This document shows positions 10,945-64,000 of a DNA stretch of 64,000 nucleotides, piece by piece. The notes beneath the pieces were generated by a model. It had not been told where the DNA came from. It did no database searches and worked only from the letters and a program-made list of their open reading frames with translations. The position numbers and the translations under genes are program-made. How positions within the stretch are numbered: the first letter of the stretch is position 1; every line of letters starts with the position of its first letter. This DNA comes from an uncultured Acidobacteriota bacterium (GTDB lineage Bacteria; Acidobacteriota; Thermoanaerobaculia; UBA5066; Gp7-AA6). The stretch covers positions 586,178-650,177 of the forward strand of contig CAVXRK010000004.1 of NCBI GenBank assembly GCA_963764025.1, in the 5' to 3' direction.

Positions 10945-11130
10945 AACCCTCTCCCCTGAGGGGAGAGGGAAGGGTGAGGGGTTCGAAGCAAGCGCCGTCC
11001 CGGATCATTTTCTTTCGCTAGACGCGTGGGGCGCCCCTCACCCCGACCCGATACCAGCGGCTGACGCCGCTGTTGCCTGACGCCGGGGGTTTGCCTCCGG
11101 TGGACGGCTCCCGCCGGGAGAGGGGGTAGG
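10945..11130 (-). repeat. Intergenic repeat element: hairpin CCCTCTCCCC..GGGGAGAGGG plus family-B 40-nt core; homologous to 60465-60650
   Basis: The reverse complement of 11036-11128 aligns to 60463-60555 (ccctctcccggcgggagccgtccaccagaggcagaccc.cggcg.taggcaaca..ggcgt.agccg.tggtatcgggtcgggg.gagggg). Confidence 0.7.
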
Positions 11131-18242: not shown

Positions 18243-18720
18243 TGTTCAGCCGCCGGTACATCTCGTCGGCCGCCATCGAGGTCGGCAGGTCCCGCTTGTT
18301 GAACTGCAGCACGTACGGCACGTTGCCGATGTCGTAGCCCTGGTCCTTGAGGTTCTTGTCGAGGTTGCGGATCGATTCGATGTTGGCCTCGAGGCGCGCC
18401 TCCTGCGAATCCGCCACGAAAACGACGCCGTCGACGCCCTTCAGGATCAGCTTGCGCGAGGCGTCGTAGAAGACCTGGCCGGGCACGGTGTAGAGGTGGA
18501 ACCGGGTCTTGAAGCCCTTGACCGTGCCGAGGTCGAGCGGCAGGAAGTCGAAGAAGAGCGTCCGGTCCGTCTCGGTCGCGAGCGAGATCAGCTTTCCCTT
18601 GGCGGACGGGTTCGTCCGGTCGTAGATGTACTGGAGGTTCGTCGTCTTCCCGCAGAGGCCGGGCCCGTAGTAGACGATCTTGCAGTTGATCTCCCGGGCC
18701 GCGTAATTGATGAAAGTCAT
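18136..18720 (-). CDS. mglA: Ras-like small GTPase MglA
   Basis: [33 protein letters not shown]...[11 protein letters not shown]...[15 protein letters not shown]...LQFNKRDLP. Confidence 0.9.
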
Positions 18721-18758
18721 GAGGGTGCCTTCGCCCGCCGATCCCGACCGTCCGCCGC

Positions 18759-19259
18759 CTACTCCGAGAAGAGACGGTCGATGTCCTCGTCCGTGATCTC
18801 GGCGAAGGGCGAGTCGAAGTCGGCCTGAAGGGCCTGCTTTTCCTTCTCGGCCTTGCGGGCGATGTCCTGGAAGATCGTCTCGAGCTCGGCCATGGCCCGC
18901 CGGACCCGCAGGCGCACGAGGCCGAGGGAGGTGCGCTCGTCGAAGATCACGACGAGGATGACGCGCTGCGCGACGATCGAGATGTGAATGTTGTCGCGCT
19001 CGCCCTCGTGGAACAGGATCGAGAACTCCTTCTCCCCGATCAGCCGGGCGAGGCCGTCGGTCGCGGCGACGTTGCCGGCCGTCAGCGAGGCGAGCGACGT
19101 CGTGTCGAGCGACTGGAGATCGCCGACGGCCGCGATCTGCTGGCCGTTCTTGTCCACCAGGAAGACCACGTTCGCGTTGGCGTCCGAGGCCAGGCGGTGG
19201 AGCGACTCCTTGATCTTCCGGAATTCCTCGTCGTAGAGGACGAGGTCAGGCAGCGTCAT
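18759..19259 (-). CDS. mglB: MglB (Roadblock/LC7 domain, MglA GAP)
   Basis: 166 aa. ...[68 protein letters not shown]..., immediately upstream of mglA. Confidence 0.8.
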
Positions 19260-53127: not shown

Positions 53128-53174
53128 TCGGACCTGGGTGGGGTCGGCACCTGACTTCACGCTCGGTTTCCGCG

Positions 53175-53619
53175 CTAGGATGCGCCCCTTCCACCCGAGC
53201 GGAGAGGTGCTGGAGTGGTTGATCAAGCCGGTCTCGAGCCGACCACCGACCCGACCACCGAAGGCAGGCCCCCGGCAGTAGGGAACGCCGTGCGAAGCAC
53301 GGCGGTTTCGGCAGACCCCCAGCAGTAGGCAGCGTCGCGCGAAGCGCGGCGCTTACGCGGTAGGCCCGACCGGGCTGCCACTTTCAGCGCACCTGACATC
53401 GCGCCCCGATTCCGCTAGGATTCGCCGTCCCACCCGCGCGGAGAGGTGCTGGAGTGGTTGATCAGGCCGGTCTCGAGCCGACCACCAGAGGCAGACCCCC
53501 GGCAGTAGGCAGCGTCGCGCGAAGCGCGGCGCTTACCCGGTAGGCCCGACCGGGCTGCCACTTTCAGCGCACCTGACATCGCGCCCGGATTCCGCTAGGA
53601 TTCGCCGTCCCACCCGCGC
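53175..53619 (+). repeat. Tandem repeat (units of about 239 and 180 bp) duplicating the upstream region plus the first 37 nt of tRNA-Ser, each fused at the anticodon loop to a family-B-containing ~100-bp element
   Basis: cgctagga...ccacccg.gcGGAGAGGTGCTGGAGTGGTTGATCA.GCCGGTCTCGA|gccgaccacc..cagtaggcagcgtcgcgcgaagcgcggcgcttac.cggtaggcccgaccgggctgccactttcagcgcacctgacatcgcgccc.gattc occurs twice (5' halves begin at 53201 and 53440) before the complete tRNA at 53620. Confidence 0.85.
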
Positions 53620-53709
53620 GGAGAGGTGCTGGAGTGGTTGATCAGGCCGGTCTCGAAAACCGGTAGGCCCGAAAGGGTCTCGTGGGTTCAAATCCCACCC
53701 TCTCCGCCA
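53620..53709 (+). tRNA. tRNA-Ser (anticodon CGA), class II with long variable arm
   Basis: ggagaggtgctggagtggttgatcaggccggtCTCGAaaaccggtaggcccgaaagggtctcgtgggttcaaatcccaccctctccgcca. Confidence 0.9.
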
Positions 53710-53881
53710 TTAATGCTGCCTCGAGACAGTCGTGGGTTCACCCGACCACCAGCGGCAGACCCCCGGCCGTAGGGAGCCGACCAGCGGAGATCCACCCCCC
53801 GGCCGTAGGCAACGCTGGTCCGAAGGCCAGCGGTAACCCACGCTGCGCGCAGCGCAGCGGTAAATCCCACCCTCTCCGCCA
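53710..53881 (+). repeat. Downstream repeat block: two family-B cores and a duplicated 3' end of tRNA-Ser (att-like)
   Basis: ..gaccaccagcggcagacccccggccgtaggg.. and ..caccccccggccgtaggcaac.. followed by aaatcccaccctctccgcca (53862-53881), identical to the last 20 nt of the tRNA. Confidence 0.75.
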
Positions 53882-53967
53882 CTTCGATCCACCTGCCGAA
53901 GGTCACCGGATCGGATCGATCGGCGTGCGCTTGGGCTCCTTGCCGAAGCGGATCCGGGACTTCTCGA

Positions 53968-54299: not shown

Positions 54300-55226
<927 letters not shown>

Positions 55227-55233
55227 GGCCCGA

Positions 55234-56558
55234 ATGAACTGGAAGAAGACCTTCGCGATCGTCCGGCGGGAGTACATCGAGCGTGTCCGCACGAAGTCGT
55301 TCTGGATCGCGACGCTCCTCATCCCCTTCCTCTTCCTCGCGTACATCGCGTTCCAGATCTCCTCGTCCCGCAAGACCGGCGGCGAGCGGACGATCGTCGT
55401 CGTCGACCAGACCGGCACGCTCTACGCCCCGCTCGAGAAGGAGCTCGCGGCGACCGAAGCCGAACAACAGGCGAAGGGCTCCGGAAACAAGGGGCCGCAC
55501 TGGAACCTGAAGCCCGCAGCGGCCGGCGGAGATCTCGAGGCGACGAAGGAAGGCTTCGCCAGCAGGTGCTCGCGAAGAAGATCAACGGCTACCTGGTCCT
55601 CGAGCCGCAGAAGATCAAGAACGACGAGGTCGAGTACTACTCGACGACGGTCTCGGACTTCATCGCCTTGAACCAGCTCGAACGCTCCCTCAACCGCGTG
55701 CGGATGCGCGAGAAGATGCAGGACCGCGGTCTGCCGACGGATCTCGCCGGCGAGCTCGAGAAGCGCGTCGACTTCAAGGCGTTCAAGGTGACCGAGAAGG
55801 GCACCTCCGAGGAGAAGGGAGCCGGCATCATCGCCGCGATCATTTTCATGGTCCTGATGTACACGACCTTCTTCGTGTACGGCGGCCAGGTCATGCGCGG
55901 CGTCATCGAGGAGAAGTCGAGCCGGATCGTCGAGATCATCATCGCTTCCGTGCGGCCGACCGAGCTCATGCTCGGCAAGATCATCGGCATCGGTCTCGTC
56001 GGCCTGACGCAGTACCTGGTCTGGTCGATTCTCGCGATGAACCTGTCGCTCCCCGGAATCGCCACCGTCCTCTCGTCGAGCGACATGGGCGTTCCCCGGA
56101 TCCCGGTCGCGATGCTCGGCTACTTCATCCTGTTCTTCGTGCTCGGCTACTTCGTCTACGCCAGCGTCTACACGACGATCGCGGCGCCGTTCAACAGCGA
56201 GCAGGAAGCCACGCAGTTCATGATGATCCCGATCGTCCTCATCCTCGCCGGCTTCATGGTGTACCCGGCCGTGATGAACAACCCCAACGGCAACGTGGCG
56301 CTCTTCTTCTCCCTCTTCCCCTTCACGTCCTCGCTCGTCATGTTCCTGCGAACGGCCGTCTCCGAGCCCCCCGCCTGGCAGGTCCTGCTGTCGATCTTTC
56401 TTCTGATCGCGACGACGGTCGGCCTCGCCTGGTTCGCCGGCCGCGTCTACCGCGTCGGCATCCTCATGTACGGCAAGAAGCCCACGATCCCCGAGATCCT
56501 CCGGTGGGTGCGGTACACCCCCGGCAAGGTCGCCCAGCCGGCGGCGAAGGCGCCGTAG
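55234..56558 (+). pseudogene. ABC-2 family (NatB-like) transporter permease with a 1-bp frameshift near 55558
   Basis: 145-aa N-terminal ORF (MNWKKTFAIVRREYIERVRTKSFWIATLLIPFLFLAYIAF...EATKEGFAS) then a frame change to ..QVLAKKINGYLVLEPQKI..(6 TM)..VGILMYGKKPTIPEILRW. Confidence 0.75.
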
Positions 56559-56626: not shown

Positions 56627-56701
56627 GGCCCATTCGTCTAACGGTTAGGACGCGGCCCTCTCAAGGCCGAAATACGGGTTCGATTCCCGTATGGGCTACC
56701 A
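56627..56701 (+). tRNA. tRNA-Glu (anticodon CTC)
   Basis: ggcccattcgtctaacggttaggacgcggccctCTCaaggccgaaatacgggttcgattcccgtatgggctacca. Confidence 0.85.
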
Positions 56702-56729
56702 CGATCTCCCGGCGCGATAAGTTGGGCGC

Positions 56730-56823
56730 CGCGTCCTACGGACGCAGCCCTCTCAAGGCGGCATCCTCTGTACCGCGCGCCCTTCCGGGCGCGACACGGG
56801 TTCGACTCCCGTGGGGGCTACCA
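56730..56823 (+). pseudogene. tRNA-like sequence / pseudo-tRNA: tRNA-Glu anticodon and 3' portion with an inserted GC hairpin, no matching 5' acceptor strand
   Basis: ggacgcagccctctcaaggc matches the tRNA-Glu D/anticodon region. A hairpin ccgcgcgcccttccgggcgcg follows, then acacgggttcgactcccgtgggggctacca (T-arm, 3' acceptor, CCA). Upstream lacks the complementary agccccc. Confidence 0.45.
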
Positions 56824-56875
56824 CTCAAATCAAAGGCCTTAGCCTCGCGCTCGGCCTCCCCTTGCATGTTGGCAA

Positions 56876-56901
56876 TCCGTGCGCTATATACTGAACTATA
56901 T
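56876..56901. promoter_or_regulatory. 26-bp near-perfect palindrome (tatactgaactatatggttcagtata) overlapping the ArsR start, putative autoregulatory operator; TATACT -10-like
   Basis: ArsR/SmtB regulators bind 12-2-12 inverted repeats at their own promoters. Confidence 0.45.
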
Positions 56902-57265
56902 GGTTCAGTATACGCGGGCCTGCCTCGATGCCTCGTTCGCCGCGCTCTCGGACGCCACCCGACGCGGCGTTCTGGAGCAGCTCGGCCGTTCCGACGCTTC
57001 GATCACGGACCTTGCCGAGAGGTTCCACATGACCCTCACGGGCATGAAGAAGCACGTCGGCGTCTTGGAGCAGGCCGGGCTCGTCGCCACGGAAAAGGTC
57101 GGGCGCGTGCGGACCTGCAAGATCGGCCCGCGCCGATTGGAGGAAGAGACGGCCTGGATCGAGAGGTATCGCCAGCTTTGGGACGCACGCTTCGACGAGT
57201 TGGACAAGGTTGTCGAGGAATTGAAACGGAAGGAGAAGGTCGATGGACGCAAGAAGAGAGAGTGA
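56900..57265 (+). CDS. ArsR/SmtB-family transcriptional regulator
   Basis: MVQYTRACLDASFAALSDATRRGVLEQLGRSDASITDLAERFHMTLTGMKKHVGVLEQAGLVATEKVGRVRTCKI (HTH). Confidence 0.8.
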   Translation: MVQYTRACLDASFAALSDATRRGVLEQLGRSDASITDLAERFHMTLTGMKKHVGVLEQAGLVATEKVGRVRTCKIGPRRLEEETAWIERYRQLWDARFDELDKVVEELKRKEKVDGRKKRE

Positions 57266-57275
57266 GGTTGCCCCC

Positions 57276-57758
57276 ATGAAGAACCGTACGACGGTGGAGC
57301 GGAAGTCCGAGCGTGAGCTCGTCGTCACGCGAACTTTCAACGGCCCGGCGCGCCTCGTGTTCGAGGCGTGGACCAAGCCCGAGCTGTTCAGGCAGTGGTG
57401 GGTGCCGAAGTCGATGGGAATGTCCCTGCTTTCCTGCGAAATGGATGTTCGTGTCGGGGGCAGGTACCGTTTGGAGTTCGCACACGGGGACTCACAGTCG
57501 GCGTTCTTCGGCACGTACAAGGAAGTAACACCGCACTCGCGCCTCGTCTGGACCAATGAGGAAAGTGACGAGGGTTCCGTCACGACGGTGACCTTCGCGG
57601 AAAAAGGCGGCAAGACGTTGCTGGTCATGCACGAGCTTTATCCCTCGAAGGAAGCTCTCGACGCCGCCGGCACCGGGGCGGCGGATGCGATGGGAGAGAC
57701 GTTCGAGCAACTGGACGAGCTTCTCGTCACCCTGGGCGCGAGCGTGGGACGGTCATGA
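57276..57758 (+). CDS. SRPBCC/AHSA1-family protein (activator of Hsp90 ATPase homolog-like)
   Basis: SD agagagagtgagg. MKNRTTVERKSERELVVTRTFNGPARLVFEAWTKPELFRQWWVP......HGDSQSAFFGTYKEVTPHSRLVWT. Confidence 0.75.
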   Translation: MKNRTTVERKSERELVVTRTFNGPARLVFEAWTKPELFRQWWVPKSMGMSLLSCEMDVRVGGRYRLEFAHGDSQSAFFGTYKEVTPHSRLVWTNEESDEGSVTTVTFAEKGGKTLLVMHELYPSKEALDAAGTGAADAMGETFEQLDELLVTLGASVGRS

Positions 57759-58165
57759 AGTCGTCGACTTCCGGTCCGCCGCCTGGCTCATTCGTTCTAA
57801 CTTCGGTCCCTCGTGGCACACCCATAAGCGAGTGGGCAATCGGTCCTCATGGCTGACCTCGCGCGCTGCTTGCCCCGGCCGGCATGGCTCACATGCAGGC
57901 CGGGGCTACCGGGCCGCGCCGTGAAAATTCGACGATGACGTTCTCGATCGGGGCGCCCTCGACGTGGGCCGTCTTGACTCGCCTCCTTGGTCCCACGACC
58001 CTGCTTCGGCAACGACCTGCTCCGGTTCTCGGTCCGTCCGGCGCCCCCCGAAGTCACGGGGGGCGCCGGCATCACCATCCGCGCACGCGTAGCAAGACTT
58101 GGGATCAAGCGGCGCGAAGCGACTCGAGATCCCGCAGGAACTGGGCCAGCTGGTTCCATGTAGGG

Positions 58166-58180
58166 CCCGTATGGGCTACC
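58166..58180 (+). other. 15-nt direct repeat of the tRNA-Glu 3' end (cccgtatgggctacc), att-like island boundary
   Basis: Identical to 56686-56700 within tRNA-Glu. Lies 1.46 kb downstream of it. Confidence 0.55.
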
Positions 58181-58249
58181 GCTTCCAGCCGGCTTTGTCA
58201 GCGATCGCTGCGTCCTGGGACGCGCCGAGCATTAGCGTCGTGAGCGCGG

Positions 58250-59608
58250 TCAGAACTCGCGTGGCAGGTCCATTTTTTTCAGGCGATCGTCAAATCGCGG
58301 ATCATCGCGCAGGCCGTCCCAATCCGGTGCGACCGCCAGGTGAACCAGTGCCGGGTCGCGCTGCGCGATGGCCTGATCAAGGCAGTCGAACGCTTCATCG
58401 AGCCGGCCTGCTGCCCCATAAATTCTGGCGCGGAAGAATGGCATCTTGAGCAACACGTCGAAGTCCAGCTGCGGGTTCGGGATTTGTTCCACCCAGAATC
58501 GGTTCACTCCGGAGAGGCCGGCAGTCGCGTACACCTGCTGCGCGTCCGCGGTGACCTGCTTCAACACCGCCACCATCTCTTCGGGTAATCCGAACTCGAT
58601 AGCCACGCTGACGGCCCAGGCGGCGAATCGATTGATGTCCCCGATCTTCAAATAGACGTAACTAATGAATTGGCACGCCTGCGCATGCTTTGGGTTGACG
58701 TCAATCGCTCGCTGGGCCCAGACAAGCGCGTCGGCGTACTTCCGCTGATTCCAATACGAGATGGCGATCTGCAGCAGAACGCCGGGCGATCGCGGATCGC
58801 GCGCGAGCGCCTGTTGCTTCGAACGCAGCCCATCGTCGAGCCGCCCAAGCGCTTCCTGGAGCGACCCATACTGCAGGAGCGCCTCGGTGTGATCCGGATT
58901 GATTTCGAGCGCATGGCGCAGGCTGCGCTCCGCCGCCGTCCAGTCCCACTCGCTGAGAAAAAGGACCGTGCCAAGGGCTACCTGCGCGTCCGCCGAGGCG
59001 CTGTCCATCGCCAGCGCGCGTAAGGCAGACGCCTTCGCCTCTGCAAACGCTTCCTGGTGCGGCACCGCGTGAGACGCTGCGAGCACGCACCGTGCGCGCG
59101 CCAGCCCGGCGTGCGCCGGCGCATAGGTCGGATCGATCTCGATCGCGGAACGAAAGGCGTCCACGGCGGCCGGCAGTTCGAAAAACGAGTCAGACAACAG
59201 GTGAGAGCGGCCGCGGCCGACAAGCTCGTAAAGTTCGACGGGTCGCGCCACGGCGCTCGATGCGAATGGCTTCTCGTCGTCCGAATCAAACCTGACTGCA
59301 GCGATGAAGCGGTACCCGGACCCCGCCACCGTTTCGATATAGATCGGCCGGTGGGCGTCCTCGTGAAGCGCCTTGCGCAGCGCCGACATGTGAACCGTGA
59401 GACCGCCTTCTTCGACGAATGACTCGGGCCAGATGCGCTTCAGCAATTCGTCCTTCGTGACCAGGCGGCCCCGCTGCTGCACCAACGCAACCAGCACATC
59501 GTAGGCCTTCGGTGACACGCGGACGACTTCCGCGCCGCGCAGGAGACGCCGCTCTCGCACGTCGAGCGTGAACTCGTCGAAATGAAATACCTCACTGCTG
59601 GTGGCCAT
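58250..59608 (-). CDS. Winged-helix (OmpR/CadC-type trans_reg_C) DNA-binding domain plus TPR-repeat regulator; lower-GC gene
   Basis: MATSSEVFHFDEFTLDVRERRLLRGAEVVRVSPKAYDVLVALVQQRGRLVTKDELLKRIWPESFVEEGGLTVHMSALRKAL.. then multiple TPR-like helices. Visibly more AT-rich than its surroundings. Confidence 0.7.
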   Translation of the reverse strand: MATSSEVFHFDEFTLDVRERRLLRGAEVVRVSPKAYDVLVALVQQRGRLVTKDELLKRIWPESFVEEGGLTVHMSALRKALHEDAHRPIYIETVAGSGYRFIAAVRFDSDDEKPFASSAVARPVELYELVGRGRSHLLSDSFFELPAAVDAFRSAIEIDPTYAPAHAGLARARCVLAASHAVPHQEAFAEAKASALRALAMDSASADAQVALGTVLFLSEWDWTAAERSLRHALEINPDHTEALLQYGSLQEALGRLDDGLRSKQQALARDPRSPGVLLQIAISYWNQRKYADALVWAQRAIDVNPKHAQACQFISYVYLKIGDINRFAAWAVSVAIEFGLPEEMVAVLKQVTADAQQVYATAGLSGVNRFWVEQIPNPQLDFDVLLKMPFFRARIYGAAGRLDEAFDCLDQAIAQRDPALVHLAVAPDWDGLRDDPRFDDRLKKMDLPREF

Positions 59609-59693
59609 CAGATTTCGGCGAATCTTAGCAAATCCTTAAGGACGCGTCACGGCCGGGACAGCTGTCATGAACGCGCTTTCAAAGGAGAAGAAA

Positions 59694-60229
59694 ATGAGCA
59701 TCCGATCGTCAGCCGCCGTCATTCTGATCTGCGGATTCACAGCACTCTCACTCGCACAAGCCCCACCAGAGCCCCCGAAGCCCGGCCCCGAGCACAAGAA
59801 GTTGGAGTACTTCGTTGGCACTTGGAGAATGGAAGGCGAGATTAAAGCCGAACGACGTATATGCCGGCCGGTAAGAGTGTCATCACCCCAACATATACAT
59901 TGGGTCCGGGGGGATTCTTTGTCGAGTTCCGCGGTGAAGGGGAAAATTACCCGACGACCCACGGAATCATGGCCTACGACAGCCAGGCGAAGCTCTACAC
60001 ACAATTTTACGCGAGCAGTGCCGGACTCATGGGTGGCGGCACAGCAACGGTTGACGGAAACACCTGGACGTGGATGCTTGAAGACAAGTGGGTTGGCAAA
60101 GCATTCAAAGGAAGAACGACAGTCACCGTCAAATCGGCCTCTCAGTTCACGGCCAAGTATGAATATCTCGACCCGAACGGCAGTTATGTAACGCTCGCAG
60201 AAGGCACCGCCACCAAAGTCGCGCCTTAG
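59694..60229 (+). pseudogene. DUF1579-family secreted protein, 1-bp deletion near 59853
   Basis: SD aaaggagaag. MSIRSSAAVILICGFTALSLAQA signal. ..KLEYFVGTWRMEGEIKAE then frame change to ..TTYMPAGKSVITPTYTLGPGGFFVEFRGEGEN... Confidence 0.6.
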
Positions 60230-60392
60230 AGACGCAGGCACCGCCGTTCGAAGTGGAGCAGAACCTGGTCCTCGCCCTCGACGCGAAGCGGGCTCGCCTC
60301 CCGGATCCGGACTTGGCGTCGATCCGAACCAGCTTCTCGACGCCTGCAGCGAGGTCTAGCAGGGGTTCACGGCGCTCCTGGAGCACGGCTTT

Positions 60393-60688
60393 CTAGGTGT
60401 GATTTCTCAACACGTTGTTCACGGCCACGGATCGCGGCTGGGCGGCCTTTTTCCCCCTCTCCCGGCGGGAGCCGTCCACCAGAGGCAGACCCACGGCGGT
60501 AGGCAACACCGGCGTGAGCCGGTGGTATCGGGTCGGGGCGAGGGGAACTCCTCGCTCGATCTGCCCACAACGCTCCTCATCTGGCCCGAGGTCCCAACCC
60601 CCTCACCCTGCCCTCTCCCCCTTTCGGGGGGAAGGGTTCTCCTATTTGACGTTCACCGGTGAACAACGTCCTGAGAAACGACACCTAG
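60393..60688. mobile_element. 296-bp non-autonomous MITE-like element bounded by ~30-bp imperfect terminal inverted repeats, carrying a family-B core and a CCCTCTCCCC hairpin
   Basis: Left ctaggtgtgatttctcaacacgttgttcac versus reverse complement of right ctaggtgtcgtttctcaggacgttgttcac (26/30). Interior 60463-60650 is homologous to 10945-11130 (reverse complement). Confidence 0.5.
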
Positions 60689-60742
60689 GTCAACCTTCAG
60701 TCTTCCCAGCTGCGTGAGCCAGTCTTGGATCTGGTTCCAACC

Positions 60743-60757
60743 GGGTTCGATTCCCGT
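60743..60757 (+). other. 15-nt fragment identical to the tRNA-Glu T-arm (gggttcgattcccgt), second att-like remnant
   Basis: Matches 56677-56691 of tRNA-Glu. Confidence 0.4.
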
Positions 60758-60882
60758 TCGGTCGAAACGACCGTCTCCTGATTTCTCGGCAATTTCCTAC
60801 GCGTCATTCACGACTGAACCGGGTTGCCGCGAGGCGCGACTTTACTCAGGAGCAACGCGAAAGAAGAAGGGACAATCGGGGG

Positions 60883-61428
60883 ATGACTCGCAGAACCGCC
60901 CGTCTTTTCGACGAGTATCTCGCCGCCGCCGCGCGAGCCGGCGACCGCGCCGCCTTCGGCCGTCTCGCCGAACGCTGGCAGCCGAAGCTCCTCTCCCACG
61001 CCTGGCGGTTGATGGGCGAGGCGGAGGCGGCGCGCGATGTCGTGCAGGACGCGTGGGCCGACATCGTGCGCGGGCTTGCGCGTCTCGACGATGCCGCCCT
61101 CTTTCCGGCCTGGGCTTATCGCATCGTATCGCGCCGCGCCGCGGATGCGATCCGGAAGCGCGGCCGCGCGCGACGGATCGGAACGACCTATGCCGCACAA
61201 GCTCCGCAAGCGGACGATAGGGCACGACGGATGGAGGCGGCAGCGGATGCGGGACCGCTCGCGAGAGCGATCGCAGGCCTTCCGCCGGATCAGCGTGCAA
61301 CAGTCGCGCTGTTCTACATCGAGGATTTTAGCGTCGCGGAAATCGCCGCGGCGACGGGCGTTCCGGCGGGCACCGTGAAGACCCGCCTGATGCATGCGCG
61401 GGCGAAATTGCGCGCCGCGCTTACTTAA
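60883..61428 (+). CDS. RNA polymerase sigma-70 factor, ECF subfamily
   Basis: ..LSHAWRLMGEAEAARDVVQDAWADIVRGLARLDD...FPAWAYRIVSRRAADAIRKR (region 2) ... VAEIAAATGVPAGTVKTRLMHARAKLR (region 4). Confidence 0.85.
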   Translation: MTRRTARLFDEYLAAAARAGDRAAFGRLAERWQPKLLSHAWRLMGEAEAARDVVQDAWADIVRGLARLDDAALFPAWAYRIVSRRAADAIRKRGRARRIGTTYAAQAPQADDRARRMEAAADAGPLARAIAGLPPDQRATVALFYIEDFSVAEIAAATGVPAGTVKTRLMHARAKLRAALT

Positions 61429-61439
61429 AGGAGAAGGCC

Positions 61440-61889
61440 ATGGATGATCTTGATCGGAAGATTGAAGAAGCCCTGAGCGTGGAAGACCGCGCCATCCTCG
61501 AGAAGTTCGGCGAGCAGGGCGTGTTTGGCTTGTGGTCCGGCGTCTATTCCGGCGCCATGGGCGGCCTTGCGGCTCTTGCGACGGTCGTCACATTTGCATT
61601 GTTTCTGGGCGCGGTTTACTGCGGCTGGAAGTTCTTCGGCGCGAGTGAGGCCATCGACGCCGCGCGCTGGGGCGTCGGCGCGGTCATGCTCATGGTGATG
61701 GTCGGCTTTCTGAAGTTGTGGTTCTGGCTTCGAATGGAATCGAACCGCGTCTTGCGCGAGGTAAAGCGTCTCGAATTGCAGATTCGCGCGCGCGAATGCT
61801 CGGTGAGAACACGCGGCGGCGCCAAAACAACGATGCGCGCGTCCGCTGCGTTCGTGTTGGCGTCGCCACGTTGCAGGCATGCTCCATGA
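61440..61889 (+). CDS. Small membrane protein downstream of the ECF sigma (possible anti-sigma or accessory factor)
   Basis: MDDLDRKIEEALSVEDRAILEKFGEQGVFGLWSGVYSGAMGGLAALATVVTFALFLGAVYCGWKFFG..AVMLMVMVGFLKLWFWL... C-terminal about 40 aa is of doubtful frame. Confidence 0.5.
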   Translation: MDDLDRKIEEALSVEDRAILEKFGEQGVFGLWSGVYSGAMGGLAALATVVTFALFLGAVYCGWKFFGASEAIDAARWGVGAVMLMVMVGFLKLWFWLRMESNRVLREVKRLELQIRARECSVRTRGGAKTTMRASAAFVLASPRCRHAP

Positions 61890-61922
61890 GAAGATTCAGA
61901 CCGCTGAGTAACGGAGCACGGC

Positions 61923-62264
61923 ATGACATGTCCTCCGAGGTTTGGCGGATGGCTGCTTGGCGCCGCTGCGCTGCTTCTCACCGCTGGCACAGGGGCTGGC
62001 CGAGGCCCCGGACCGAAGACGGACTCGCCAAAAGCCGACTGCGCTTTCAGCAACCGCAATTGGTCCGGCTGGTGCAGAGTGACTGTTTCATTGCCGCGGG
62101 ACCAAACGCCCCTGCAAGCCTGCGCCGTGGTCCTGAGTTGTCTCAACGGCAACAGCTCTGTCTGCCAGGGAAACATCATCCCTTGCCACGCATACGATGT
62201 TCGCAGTGGCTGGAAGATGGAAGAAGCTGTTCCAGCGCGACCGCAACCGACGCCAACTCGCTGA
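61923..62264 (+). CDS. Hypothetical small secreted Cys-rich protein (8 Cys), lower-GC
   Basis: MTCPPRFGGWLLGAAALLLTAG signal-like N-terminus. ..CAFSNRNWSGWCRVTVS..CAVVLSCLNGNSSVCQGNIIPCHAY.. Confidence 0.35.
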   Translation: MTCPPRFGGWLLGAAALLLTAGTGAGRGPGPKTDSPKADCAFSNRNWSGWCRVTVSLPRDQTPLQACAVVLSCLNGNSSVCQGNIIPCHAYDVRSGWKMEEAVPARPQPTPTR

Positions 62265-62400
62265 CCGATCCAATCAGCCGTAACGGCTACCGCGACTCCG
62301 CGGCTTCGCCAATTCAAGCCGCGTCCTCCGGACGCGACCCTCTCCAGGCGACGTCCATCGATAGAATCCTCCCTGCATCCGGATCCCAGATGCCTCGTGC

Positions 62401-63600
62401 GTGCTGCAAGATGGGGGAAGCTTGAGAGTCGCGATCAACGGAATCGGAGTCGGGGGTCCGACGCTGGCCTACTGGTTGCGCCGGTACGGCCACGATCCCG
62501 TGCTTTTCGAGAAGGCGCCGGCTCTGCGCTCGGAAGGCTACCTCATCGACTTCTGGGGCCTCGGCTACGCCATCGCCGAGCGCATGGGCCTTCTTCCGAC
62601 ACTGCACCAGAGCTGCTACCTGATGGAACGGCTGCGCATGGTGGACGCCGCCGGTCGCGATGACGCGACGCTCGACCTCGCCCCGATGCGCGAGATGCTC
62701 CGGGGGCGCTTCATCAGCCTCGCGCGGGCCGATCTCGCGAAGGCGCTCTTCGAAGCCTGTGGCGCGGTCCCGGCGCACTTCGGCGTATCGGTCACGGCGA
62801 TCGATCAGGATCACGACGAGGTCCTCGCCACCCTCTCCGACGGTCGGCAGGAGCGCTTCGATCTCGTGGTCGGCGCCGACGGGCTGCACTCGCGCGTGCG
62901 GGAGCTCGTGTTCGGCCCGGAAGCTCGCTTCGAGAAGTCGCTGGGCTGCTACGTCGCCGCCTTCCGGATCCGCGGATATCCCCGCCGCGACGAGCTCAGC
63001 TACGTCTCGCATACCGTCCCCAAGCGCCAGGTTGCTCGCGTCGCGCTCCGCAACGACGAGACCCTGGCCTTGCTCGTGTGCCGTGCGGAGCTCATCGACG
63101 GCGGTCTTCCCGAGGTGCCGCCGAAGGAGGCTCTTCGGCGGGCGTTCGGCGGAATGCGCTGGGAGGTGCCCGAGATCCTGGATGCCATGGATCGGTCCGA
63201 CGATTTTTATTTCGATCGCGTGAGCCAGATCCATTTGCCGAGGTGGTCCTCGGGGCGCGTCGGCCTGCTCGGCGACGCCGCCGCCTGCGCATCCCTTCTC
63301 GCCGGGGAAGGAACGGGGCTGGCGATGCTCGAAGCGTACGTGCTCGCCGGCGAGCTGCATCGGGCCGACGGCGATTTCGCGCGAGCTTTTGAGTCCTACG
63401 ACGCGCGACTGCGCTCGTTCATAACGGCCAAGCAGAAGGCCGCCCTGGGCTTCCGCGGATTCTTCGCTCCGCAGACCGCGCTGGGCCTGAAGGCGAGAAA
63501 CGCTCTCGTCAACGCCCTGTCCATCGGGTTCCTCGCGAAGCGCTTTCTCGCAACTCAACTGCGCGACGATTTCGAGCTGCCCGAGTATTCGGCGCCGTGA
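62401..63600 (+). CDS. FAD-dependent monooxygenase (FAD_binding_3, aromatic-ring hydroxylase family)
   Basis: GTG 62401, or TTG 62422 giving (M)RVAINGIGVGGPTLAYWLRRYGHDPVLFEKAP (GxGxxG) ...DLVVGADGLHSRVRE... ..GRVGLLGDAAA.. Confidence 0.8.
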   Translation: MLQDGGSLRVAINGIGVGGPTLAYWLRRYGHDPVLFEKAPALRSEGYLIDFWGLGYAIAERMGLLPTLHQSCYLMERLRMVDAAGRDDATLDLAPMREMLRGRFISLARADLAKALFEACGAVPAHFGVSVTAIDQDHDEVLATLSDGRQERFDLVVGADGLHSRVRELVFGPEARFEKSLGCYVAAFRIRGYPRRDELSYVSHTVPKRQVARVALRNDETLALLVCRAELIDGGLPEVPPKEALRRAFGGMRWEVPEILDAMDRSDDFYFDRVSQIHLPRWSSGRVGLLGDAAACASLLAGEGTGLAMLEAYVLAGELHRADGDFARAFESYDARLRSFITAKQKAALGFRGFFAPQTALGLKARNALVNALSIGFLAKRFLATQLRDDFELPEYSAP

Positions 63601-63801
63601 ACGAGCCGATTTCGGATTCGGCTGGCGAAACATGCTGGAGGATCGCGCGTTCCTCCCGCGCCGCGCTCCCCGGCGGACGCTCGCCCTCGACAACGTCCGG
63701 TCGTGCGACGACGACCTCGCCGGCCGCGTCGCGGTCGAGCTGACGAGACGCAGCCCGTGTGACAACGCTCGATGCAACCCGAACCGGTTCGACGCGATAT
63801 T

Positions 63802-64000
63802 TCACCCCAGCTTGATGAAACCCCCCGGATCCGTCCATTGACCGCGCTCGTAAAGGAAGCGGACGGCCTTATCCACGACGATCTGCCCGTCCTCGGGAGA
63901 AATCTCGATCTCTGCGCGCTCGAGCGGCCTTGGTGTCGGGCCCTCGAAGTTGATTCCCGAGACGTAGTAACCCGAACCGTGGCAGGGACACTTGAATTTG
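63802..64000 (-). CDS. Rieske [2Fe-2S] domain protein, C-terminal part (5' end beyond window)
   Basis: Reverse-strand translation ..KFKCPCHGSGYYVSGINFEGPTPRPLERAEIEISPEDGQIVVDKAVRFLYERGQWTDPGGFIKLG* contains the second Rieske box CPCHGS.Y. Confidence 0.6.
   Translation of the reverse strand, partial: KFKCPCHGSGYYVSGINFEGPTPRPLERAEIEISPEDGQIVVDKAVRFLYERGQWTDPGGFIKLG

Follow-up and report, generated by a model that had tools for sequence, protein, structure and literature searches.

Islands that grow by addition at tRNA genes are thought to be a major route of adaptive gene swapping in free-living bacteria. In the additive flexible islands of Alteromonas (Lopez-Perez and Rodriguez-Valera, PMC4898812), a hotspot beside a tRNA gene lies between conserved flanks, each strain or species carries its own combination of small cassettes, the cargo consists of regulators, transporters and stress or envelope functions, and near-identical cassettes are found in divergent species while the core genome drifts. 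Here we describe a locus with all of these traits in an uncultured Acidobacteriota bacterium (assembly GCA_963764025.1, contig CAVXRK010000004.1, positions 586,178-650,177 of the forward strand; these 64,000 nt are called the window below). The interval from tRNA-Glu(CTC) at 56627 to a Rieske gene at about 63.8 kb is a hypervariable cassette array between conserved flanks. We consider it rather probable that this 7.1-kb interval is an additive flexible genomic island, composed of small cassettes of one to three genes that are independently exchangeable and were inserted singly: a tRNA gene between conserved flanks, contents that differ by whole cassettes, repeats of the tRNA 3' end and a cassette identity above that of the core genome were all found. 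The locus departs from the Alteromonas islands in its host, a soil Acidobacteriota (Thermoanaerobaculia-like), in a conserved tRNA-derived module of 95-170 nt with extra hairpins and a common right-end motif where those islands have a partial tRNA, and in a permanent, tandem-amplifiable, cargo-less copy of the module behind the tRNA. Flexible islands at tRNA genes are a known kind; what seems unusual is the long tRNA-derived module with its standing cargo-less copy, the right end that resembles an open reading frame (ORF) and the consistent lack of a recombinase.

Relatives were obtained by a NatA scan of species-representative genomes, which yielded Acidobacteriota/Thermoanaerobaculia metagenome-assembled genomes (MAGs; L001-L013, 67-95% protein identity); 11 Acidobacteriota MAGs were compared, with +/-10 kb of sequence per contig. 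Metagenome loci were retrieved with the 18-mer GGCGCGACACGGGTTCGA, specific for the tRNA-derived unit, which we call psi. This gave 93 stretches, 80 of them listed, among which about 35 have complete psi motifs, mostly beside a tRNA-Glu(CTC).

Exchange is indicated by a comparison of the cassettes with their surroundings. The array of the window reads tRNA-psi-A-B-C-D, with four cassettes. Between genomes, cassettes A and B are 90-99% identical vs 78-86% for core DNA. The core stretch 44.3-51.5 kb is 85.5% identical in L001, 83.5% in L008, 82.3% in L002, 79.8% in L005 and 78.2% in L006 (L003 was not compared). Cassette A reaches 98.7% in L002, 98.0% in L008 and 94.9% in L005, and is absent from L001, L003 and L006; cassette B, also present in 12 metagenome loci, reaches 96.3% in L005, 94.0% in L001, 93.8% in L008, 92.2% in L003 and 89.7% in L006, and is absent from L002. 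Judged by these identities, the cassettes are younger than the surrounding genome and are shared between species by horizontal exchange. Synteny is not conserved among the relatives, where cassettes differ in presence and in order: L008 reads tRNA-psi-(lipocalin + DUF6134)-B-psi-A-...-psi-(PEP mutase), the A-B block is inverted in L005, and L007 carries, between the same left flank and the Rieske gene, five tandem psi units, MarC, DUF1254/DUF1214, a 375-aa unknown protein and a P450. The window and L007 have both flanks and not one cassette in common. Neither C nor D was found in any of the 11 relatives or of the metagenome loci compared. The array proteins of the window and eight relatives (L001, L002, L003, L005, L006, L007, L008 and L013) form 63 clusters, 50 of which occur at a single locus; the cargo serves miscellaneous accessory functions, with alpha/beta hydrolases, a methyltransferase, NIPSNAP, OmpA, a ClC channel, catalase, LysM and regulators. 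The array can be rejected as an assembly artefact or chimera because independently assembled MAGs and metagenomes repeat its architecture. Its features are as follows, with the basis of each in brackets.

54300-56558, plus strand: left flank, core natA/natB-like ABC transporter genes (Pfam)
56627-56701, plus strand: intact tRNA-Glu(CTC), the anchor of the array (ARAGORN; Rfam RF00005, 64.3 bits)
56702-56823, plus strand: spacer (56702-56730, 29 nt) and psi1 (56731-56823) (sequence comparison; recurs in relatives)
56824-58180, plus strand: cassette A, with ArsR-type repressor, AHSA1/SRPBCC gene, non-coding tail, right end and core (Pfam, junctions)
56879-57265, plus strand: ORF of the ArsR-type regulator (HTH_20), ATG at 56900 (Pfam)
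57243-57758, plus strand: AHSA1/SRPBCC protein (Pfam, 9e-23)
58181-58240, plus strand: psi2, degenerate spacer and psi (repeat comparison, junction listing)
58241-60741, both strands: cassette B, with wHTH-TPR regulator, DUF1579 gene and interrupted right end (Pfam, alignment)
58250-59608, minus strand: wHTH (Trans_reg_C) and TPR regulator (Pfam)
59667-60229, plus strand: DUF1579 protein in two frames (Pfam; alignment to intact copies)
60393-60688, no strand: miniature inverted-repeat transposable element (MITE) of 288 bp (60397-60684) with CTAG duplications (60393-96 and 60685-88), which interrupts the right end of cassette B (inverted repeats, empty sites)
60742-60757, plus strand: T-arm remnant of a psi unit (T-arm repeat count; comparison with L008 and L005)
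60758-62276, plus strand: cassette C, with extracytoplasmic function (ECF) sigma factor, DUF6768 gene and small secreted-type ORF (Pfam)
60883-61428, plus strand: ECF sigma factor (Pfam)
61440-61889, plus strand: DUF6768 protein, putative membrane partner (Pfam)
61923-62264, plus strand: small Cys-rich ORF with a signal-peptide-like start (sequence)
62277-62352, plus strand: psi3, degenerate truncated unit (motif mapping)
62353-63801, plus strand: cassette D, with FAD monooxygenase and a fragment of a helix-turn-helix (HTH) regulator (Pfam, comparison)
62401-63600, plus strand: FAD-dependent monooxygenase (Pfam)
63802-64000, minus strand: right flank, 3' part of a Rieske [2Fe-2S] gene (Pfam of the L007 copy, translation, 79% identity)

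A first reading of this DNA, made from the sequence alone, had described an accessory segment at 56627-60757. Its listed features were recovered at, or within a few bases of, where it had placed them and beyond chance (ARAGORN, Rfam, Pfam, shuffles), and Pfam agrees with its ArsR, AHSA1, wHTH-TPR and DUF1579 assignments. Its right border does not hold: the array continues to about 63.8 kb, and because psi3 and cassettes C and D are also array parts and the Rieske gene (stop codon 63802-63804) is the border, the accessory segment measures about 7.1 kb instead of 4.1 kb. The Rieske flank is 79% identical to L007 18442-18638, within a Pfam Rieske gene (18440-19171) that forms the right border there too. 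On the other side, tRNA-Arg, tRNA-Ser and natAB are kept in all relatives L001-L013 and tRNA-Glu(CTC) in most; natAB and tRNA-Glu are collinear in every close relative (blastn). The natA/natB flank is 77-93% identical in L001-L008 and L013 and 73-74% in L009 and L010, and the tRNA-Glu of the window is 100% identical to those of L001, L002, L007 and L008. The composition of the array is atypical against the background, with a GC content of 0.637 (56702-63750) vs 0.692 (window 1-56600) and a third-position GC content (GC3) of 0.63-0.83 in array genes (0.63-0.75 in cassette C) vs 0.895 +/- 0.045 for 21 long background genes. As to the lower GC that had been attributed to genes of the segment, a marked drop is confined to DUF1579 (0.53-0.56). 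With atypical GC and GC3 and non-conserved synteny, the block is clearly not one of uniform composition and conserved order, the pattern that would contradict the sequence-only reading.

The boundaries of the cassettes are sharp. The left junction of cassette A, ...GGGCTACCA followed by CTCA, is identical in five different upstream contexts, namely behind an intact psi (window and L002), a psi with a 52-nt insert in its T loop (L008), a psi with a 7-nt T-loop expansion (L111) and the right end of another cassette (L118), and its right junction (right end RE_A plus core) runs into four different sequences. The ends of cassette B are equally precise in about 15 loci, and motif mapping and junction listings agree that cassettes start right after a copy of the core, a boundary that is consistent for A and B. 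This core (M4) is the last 16 nt of tRNA-Glu, CCCGTATGGGCTACCA (56686-56701); at 16-17 nt it spans the 3' strand of the T stem, the acceptor 3' strand and the CCA. Cassettes close with a right end of about 60 nt, whose consensus, ...CGAGATCnCnnAGGAAnnnnnnCGATCTGGTTCCA (...GATCTGGTTCCA), is followed by 7 nt and then by the next core copy. Unrelated cassettes share the right-end motif, of which 23 copies with 21 distinct sequences were collected from relatives and metagenome loci. All 23, as well as cassette A of the window, have the core CCCGTATGGGCTACC(A) behind them; in the window, cassette B is succeeded by no more than a T-arm remnant and cassette C by a degenerate copy of the core. Successive core copies are spaced by about 0.8-3.6 kb in the five arrays measured. 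Because cassettes start after a core and end with a right end and another core, the core would be a direct repeat around each cassette, and any copy of it, in the tRNA, in psi or at the right end of a resident cassette, could be used as a landing site. We propose that insertion occurs by site-specific recombination at this 16-17-nt core.

The same repeats could also act by homologous recombination only. The tRNA-derived repeats of 95-170 nt would then be portable homology, through which DNA coming from relatives (e.g. by transformation) replaces, adds, deletes or inverts intervals, tandem psi units would arise by unequal crossing-over, and no dedicated recombinase would be involved. Consistent with this, about 45 arrays (the window, eight relatives and 34 metagenome loci) yielded no recombinase gene, perfect 118-nt tandem psi copies exist in L007, a cassette was swapped between similar psi units at the same relative position in L001 and L008, and internal deletions terminate within repeats. 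The block that the window and L002 share at 98.5% identity moreover extends from the tRNA T arm over spacer, psi1 and cassette A to the next core, the flanking unit included. However, the exact left end of cassette A directly after ACCA is seen behind four kinds of unit, whereas homologous exchange would carry the neighbouring unit along, and identity at some junctions is limited to the 16-nt core. Such exchange also leaves unexplained how unrelated cargo was first placed between the repeats, and why a common right-end motif stands directly before the core. We consider it unlikely that homologous recombination accounts for the array by itself.

The sequence-only reading had proposed serial integration at the tRNA-Glu 3' end followed by decay. 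The accessory block, the direct repeats that delimit its parts and the decay of internal units are all there, but the parts are discrete cassettes with precise ends and not the remains of a large island. Taken literally, that proposal would make the locus what is left of one or two large integrated elements (a prophage or an integrative and conjugative element), the integrase and most genes having been lost in this lineage. This reading could accommodate the direct repeats of the tRNA 3' end, the frameshift, the truncated fragment of a regulator, the degenerate repeat units and the missing integrase. Lineage-specific erosion cannot, however, account for small cassettes that recur in other species with their exact ends unchanged, in different orders and at 90-99% identity, and no phage, conjugation or replication gene or fragment came up in the Pfam and PHROGs scans (for the scans of 146 proteins, among the 25 commonest families listed). 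Cassette identities and junctions largely refute the erosion of a large element, which we regard as scarcely credible. The frameshift in DUF1579 is present in this sequence as two extra bases (59847 and 59857) relative to the intact 186-aa copies of L008, L087 and L090, and may be an assembly error. The core gene natB (55234-56558) likewise has a 1-nt deletion at 55552 relative to L001, probably an assembly error, which splits the ABC-2 permease into two frames; natB of L008 is similarly truncated, and the MFD-series relatives are presumably long-read MAGs. For these reasons the DUF1579 frameshift is no evidence of decay.

The first copy of psi had been taken for a tRNA-like remnant with an inserted hairpin; the structure is present at 56731-56823, but it is a conserved, multi-copy unit in relatives and not a decayed relic. 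In psi1 the hairpin GCGTCC-TAC-GGACGC (56731-45) stands in place of the D arm and is followed by an anticodon-loop-like CCCTCTCAAGGCGGC (56748-62), the hairpin GCGCGCCC-TTCC-GGGCGCG at the position of the variable loop (56775-93), a T arm (56796-812) and the core CCCGTGGGGGCTACCA (56808-823). The T-arm and acceptor part, to the CCA, is 82% identical to tRNA-Glu over 38 nt and the anticodon-arm part 95% over 20 nt; the 5' acceptor strand is missing. A psi unit of 95-120 nt is conserved in all close relatives, sometimes in tandem. It directly follows tRNA-Glu in the window, L001, L002, L003, L006, L007, L008, L013 and more than 30 metagenome contigs, and it is present in two or three copies in L002, L003 and several metagenome contigs and in up to five tandem units in L007, which include the perfect 118-nt copies. 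Units consist of spacer, hairpins, T arm and core, are bounded by core copies, and within one array all share the tRNA orientation. In this, psi behaves like a cassette devoid of cargo; it would provide landing sites outside the tRNA and can be amplified in tandem.

Further copies mark the cassette boundaries. The exact 15-nt repeat of the tRNA 3' end that had been noticed at 58166 was confirmed: CCCGTATGGGCTACC lies at 58166-58180, and with up to 2 mismatches it has 3 matches in 64 kb vs 0.05 expected, a number reached in 0 of 100 shuffles. The T-arm fragment reported near 60743 is an exact 16-mer, CGGGTTCGATTCCCGT, at 60742-60757 (3 matches vs 0.17 expected). Internal units would decay later by deletion, as at 58181-58240, 60742-60757 and 62277-62352. 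Psi2 retains the spacer motif CCGGCTTTGTCAG and the hairpin GCGTCC-TG-GGACGC (58209-58222) and is otherwise eroded; at the homologous position L001 keeps more of the unit and L005 less. Between the right end of cassette B (RE_B) and the T-arm remnant, the core, the spacer and both hairpins are present in L008 and L005 and deleted in the window. Psi3 comprises the core-like GCCGTAACGGCTACC (62277-91), a spacer, the hairpin GCGTCC-TCC-GGACGC (62321-35) and CCCTCTCCAGGCGAC (62338-52), and lacks the second hairpin and the T arm. Many psi units also carry in their T loop, exactly between GGGTTCGATT and CCCGT, a two-hairpin insert of 50-52 nt (AGCGCCGGGCGGACCCGGCGCT-TGTC-GCGGCGCTTTCGCGCCGC-TCGGTGC), as in L001 (12501-12552), L008 (16242-16292), L087, L090, L096, L097, L114 and L120; in others this point is expanded by 7 nt (ACTGGCG, ACTAGGG, AGTCGGG), of the same kind as the 7 nt of the right ends. 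These inserts and expansions suggest that recombination or insertion can also occur at a second point, within the T loop. Insertion of cassettes into the T loop (GGGTTCGA followed by cargo) was rejected as a general rule, the boundary of A and B lying consistently after ACCA.

The conservation of psi could instead reflect an RNA function: psi would chiefly be a structured RNA co-transcribed with tRNA-Glu, as a processing signal or decoy, and cassettes would gather there since tRNA-like DNA attracts integrases. It is retained beside tRNA-Glu in all close relatives, its stems are invariant while the spacer and the hairpin loops vary, and the loops are often of the UUCG type. The L007 unit folds into a cloverleaf-like structure (-49 kcal/mol, z = -2.6) with an AGCCC/GGGCU stem beside ACCA, two arms and a T arm, and one unit (L108 4026-4117, minus strand) is even called a 92-nt class-II tRNA-Ser(GCT) by ARAGORN, its GC hairpin serving as long variable arm. 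However, that call includes two acceptor-stem mismatches and G33, and its 'anticodon' is not conserved; psi1 of the window has neither a tRNA call by ARAGORN nor a Rfam match, and 56731-56823, without a 5' acceptor strand, does not match the cloverleaf expected of a functional tRNA (7-bp acceptor stem, D arm, 7-nt anticodon loop with U33). The window copy folds no better than shuffles suggest (z = -1.8; another unit gave -0.6). Among 18 distinct units, RNAalifold predicted 21 pairs, nearly all invariant or with one-sided changes; compensatory changes were found in 0 of the 21, and the covariation term was -0.09 kcal/mol, a result that is neutral as to the structure. Internal copies, moreover, decay freely, and the distribution of psi tracks cassette boundaries. 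From the lack of covariation, the z-scores and the lack of a Rfam family we reject psi as a functional tRNA, and a mainly RNA-level role appears quite improbable.

If insertion is site-specific, its enzyme would have to come from elsewhere. The sequence-only reading had remarked that no integrase remained, and this was borne out by Pfam, PHROGs and motif scans of the arrays. Pfam searches of the window cassettes and about 40 individual array proteins gave no tyrosine or serine recombinase. None was among the 25 commonest families listed for 146 proteins of 34 metagenome loci (Pfam and PHROGs), where a single integrase could hide. A six-frame scan for tyrosine-recombinase box II and resolvase motifs in the window, L001-L014 and L082-L161 gave only an XerC/D-like gene at L089, a non-array locus. 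Searches of viral contigs with five patterns (psi hairpin/T arm, two of right end plus core, tRNA T arm to CCA, and core plus spacer) returned one irrelevant phage contig, L081, with one pattern and nothing with the other four. Since none of the roughly 45 arrays examined encodes a recombinase, we infer that it acts in trans, which is favoured over simple loss.

Such an arrangement has parallels. Cis-mobilizable elements (CIMEs), known from the tandem accretion of the ICESt1 family in Streptococcus thermophilus, are flanked by att sites, lack integrase and excisionase genes, stand in tandem at the 3' ends of tRNAs or genes and can be mobilised in trans by the integrase of a related element. 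The cassettes described here are likewise flanked by att-like core repeats and free of detected recombination genes, but they are much smaller, and the unit that bears the att site greatly exceeds a usual att core in length; no helper element of this type was found in the loci examined (+/-10 kb per relative contig). The tRNA-seeded islands of Prochlorococcus (bioRxiv 10.1101/2020.12.28.424599) resemble our locus in that older elements are displaced inward as new ones integrate at the tRNA one after another, neighbouring elements are set apart by partial tRNAs, and degenerate remnants and extra partial tRNAs are scattered about. Their tycheposons, however, encode tyrosine or serine recombinases along with replication modules, and integrase fragments persist in the islands (bioRxiv 10.1101/2020.12.28.424599), whereas the units seen here have one to three genes, and no recombinase gene or fragment was found inside an element in the arrays examined. 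Integrons, and clusters of attC sites lacking integron-integrases (CALINs), also consist of co-oriented arrays of small cassettes with one structured recombination unit at each cassette end and are reshuffled between genomes; CALIN arrays likewise lack an adjacent integrase. Here, by contrast, there is no intI or attI, and the cassettes have their own regulators and genes on both strands. Inspection of 45 aligned units, with no attC model run, showed neither an R''-L''/L'-R' imperfect palindrome nor a GTTRRRY core; in the unit, three separate hairpins stand in tRNA-like succession, which ends in CCCGTATGGGCTACCA without an inverse core site.

A hint at the nature of the enzyme may lie in the right end. 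Read on the minus strand, core and right end together encode (L/V)VAHTG-x-x-x-WNQ(I/L)AxFLxD(L/F)xxLRxAA-stop, with the stop at the same position in most copies. The frame W-N-Q-[IL]-A-x-F-L-x-D-[LF]-x-x-L-R-x-A-A-stop has 667 synonymous codon differences, the most of the six frames (177-471 in the others), and its codons vary for Leu (CTC/CTT/CTG/CTA/TTA) and Asp (GAT/GAC). An inverted repeat in the DNA (AGATCG...CGATCT) was rejected as the main constraint because variants break it and yet keep the peptide. The motif may be derived from the 3' terminus of a gene with the attachment core inside it, a step that we regard as weak. In archaeal 'suicidal' integrases of the spindle-shaped virus (SSV) type, a tRNA-derived core lies inside the ORF and integration leaves a gene fragment at the end of the element (PMC7253208). 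The right end described here similarly corresponds to the final 17-18 codons (about 25 if the core-encoded residues are counted) of an ORF running through the core; it differs in that only the extreme C-terminus would be split off, in the bacterial lineage and in that the gene body did not appear in our searches. By this analogy the right end could be the fossil gene end of an ancestral autonomous element, possibly of its recombinase, the identification as an integrase being pure inference.

Several observations weigh against this scheme. The synonymous excess is moderate, at 19% of codon differences. A word-indexed search of 5.8 billion proteins gave no protein with the right-end tail at E <= 10, an exhaustive HMMER search of 1.84 billion proteins gave 4 matches, all to unrelated repetitive proteins, and in the loci examined no long in-frame ORF, only low-GC3 open frames, lies beside any core copy; the gene fossil is thus left without its gene. 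As DNA, the right end also looks psi-like to the eye (TCACGCGGCG...CCTCAAGGC...GGTTCCA). Cassettes C and D have no canonical right end. Some cassettes abut the T loop (GGGTTCGA and then cargo) and not the core, and some psi units carry the 7- or 52-nt T-loop insertion, which requires a second crossover point, or deletions, to be invoked. The box II/resolvase scan detects only XerC/D-like proteins and is of limited sensitivity. Finally, neither a recombinase nor an excised circle nor an empty/occupied pair within one species was observed, which means that site-specific recombination is deduced from the anatomy only.

It is tempting to speculate further that the array belongs to an integron-like system native to this clade of soil Acidobacteriota. 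Cassettes of one to three genes, each with a tRNA-Glu-derived module of about 120-170 nt, would be moved between species by a recombinase acting in trans, the cargo-less unit would be a protected landing pad, and the recombinase gene would hold the core in its last 25 or so codons and be split on integration, a bacterial counterpart of the archaeal suicidal integrases. We find this full version doubtful. The locus nevertheless offers, in a phylum that is abundant in soil and uncultured, an anatomy of unusual clarity, with exact ends, a common right-end motif and a conserved cargo-less unit, and this anatomy makes predictions. An excised circle should carry the right end, 7 nt and CCCGTATGGGCTACCA joined to the cassette left end, e.g. 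...GGTTCCATGTAGGGCCCGTATGGGCTACCA joined to CTCAAATCAAAGG, or for cassette A ...CAGCTGGTTCCATGTAGGGCCCGTATGGGCTACCA joined to CTCAAATCAAAGGCCTTAGCC, and the recombinase should have a specific C-terminus; long-read data from soil metagenomes would allow both to be sought. If a recombinase were found, the Acidobacteriota would have a compact cassette-exchange system; if not, the locus would be a well-documented ordinary flexible island.

The cassettes themselves show further details. The operator of the ArsR gene, which had been called a perfect palindrome, is perfect in its core (9-6-9), while the full 13-nt arms (56887-56912) are 92% complementary. The tail of cassette A contains a perfect 13-bp GC hairpin (CCGGCGCCCCCCG / CGGGGGGCGCCGG, 6-nt loop, 58038-58069); its right end RE_A occupies 58105-58165, reads ...VAHTGPTWNQLAQFLRDLESLRAA* on the minus strand and is followed by the core at 58166-58180. 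RE_B (60689-60741) ends in ...GATCTGGTTCCAAC. Between the FAD monooxygenase and the Rieske gene, a truncated ORF fragment (LALDNVRSCDDDLAGRVAVELT, about 63632-63750) resembles part of an HTH regulator gene of L002 (20632-20720).

The element in cassette B, described before as 296 bp long with terminal inverted repeats of about 30 bp, is a real mobile element, but of 288 bp plus a CTAG duplication and with inverted repeats of 26 bp (GTGTGATTTCTCAACACGTTGTTCAC; ends GTGTSRTTTCTCARSACGTTGTTCAC). It has no ORF. Counted with their surroundings, 60393-60422 and 60659-60688 are 87% complementary over 30 nt, none being expected in shuffles. Empty sites exist in L005 (TTTCTAGGTCAAC) and in L001 and L008 (TTTCCAGGTCAAC), and L002 has at 117-355 a second copy, which shares the ends and the CTAG flanks but lacks an internal stretch of 57 nt. 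By these features it is a true MITE, which appears to have entered the right end of cassette B after this cassette diverged from its relatives and would be a later insertion unrelated to the formation of the array. A 4-bp CTAG/YTAR duplication is typical of the IS5 group and suggests a transposase of that group. The inverted repeats, the duplication, the lack of an ORF, the empty sites and the second copy are shared with IS5-type MITEs; unlike these, the element has as its interior a mosaic of other short repeats found in this genome, from which it seems to have been assembled. A 77% copy of its internal 186 bp, without the terminal inverted repeats, is found at 10945-11126 (minus strand). A short repeat, CCACCAGAGGCAGACCCNCGGCNGTAGGCA, usually followed by a GC hairpin, is dispersed in intergenic DNA and also lies inside the MITE (window 23446, 40488, 53475, 53742 and 60468; also L001, L002, L003, L005, L008, L097 and L157); it may be similar to repetitive extragenic palindromic elements.

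Upstream of tRNA-Ser(CGA) (53620-53709), within 53150-53900, a promoter-like region and the 5' half of the tRNA, as far as the anticodon loop, are repeated (period 180, 1.9 copies, 98% identity), with a third, older copy at 53193-53237; behind each of the truncated copies stands GCCGACCACCAGAGGCAGACCCCCGGCAGTAGGCA... Downstream, at 53729-53880, a tRNA-Ser T arm is split by an insert of about 125 nt. Because the distances between tRNA-Arg, tRNA-Ser and natA vary by kilobases among the relatives, these tRNAs may be hotspots too.

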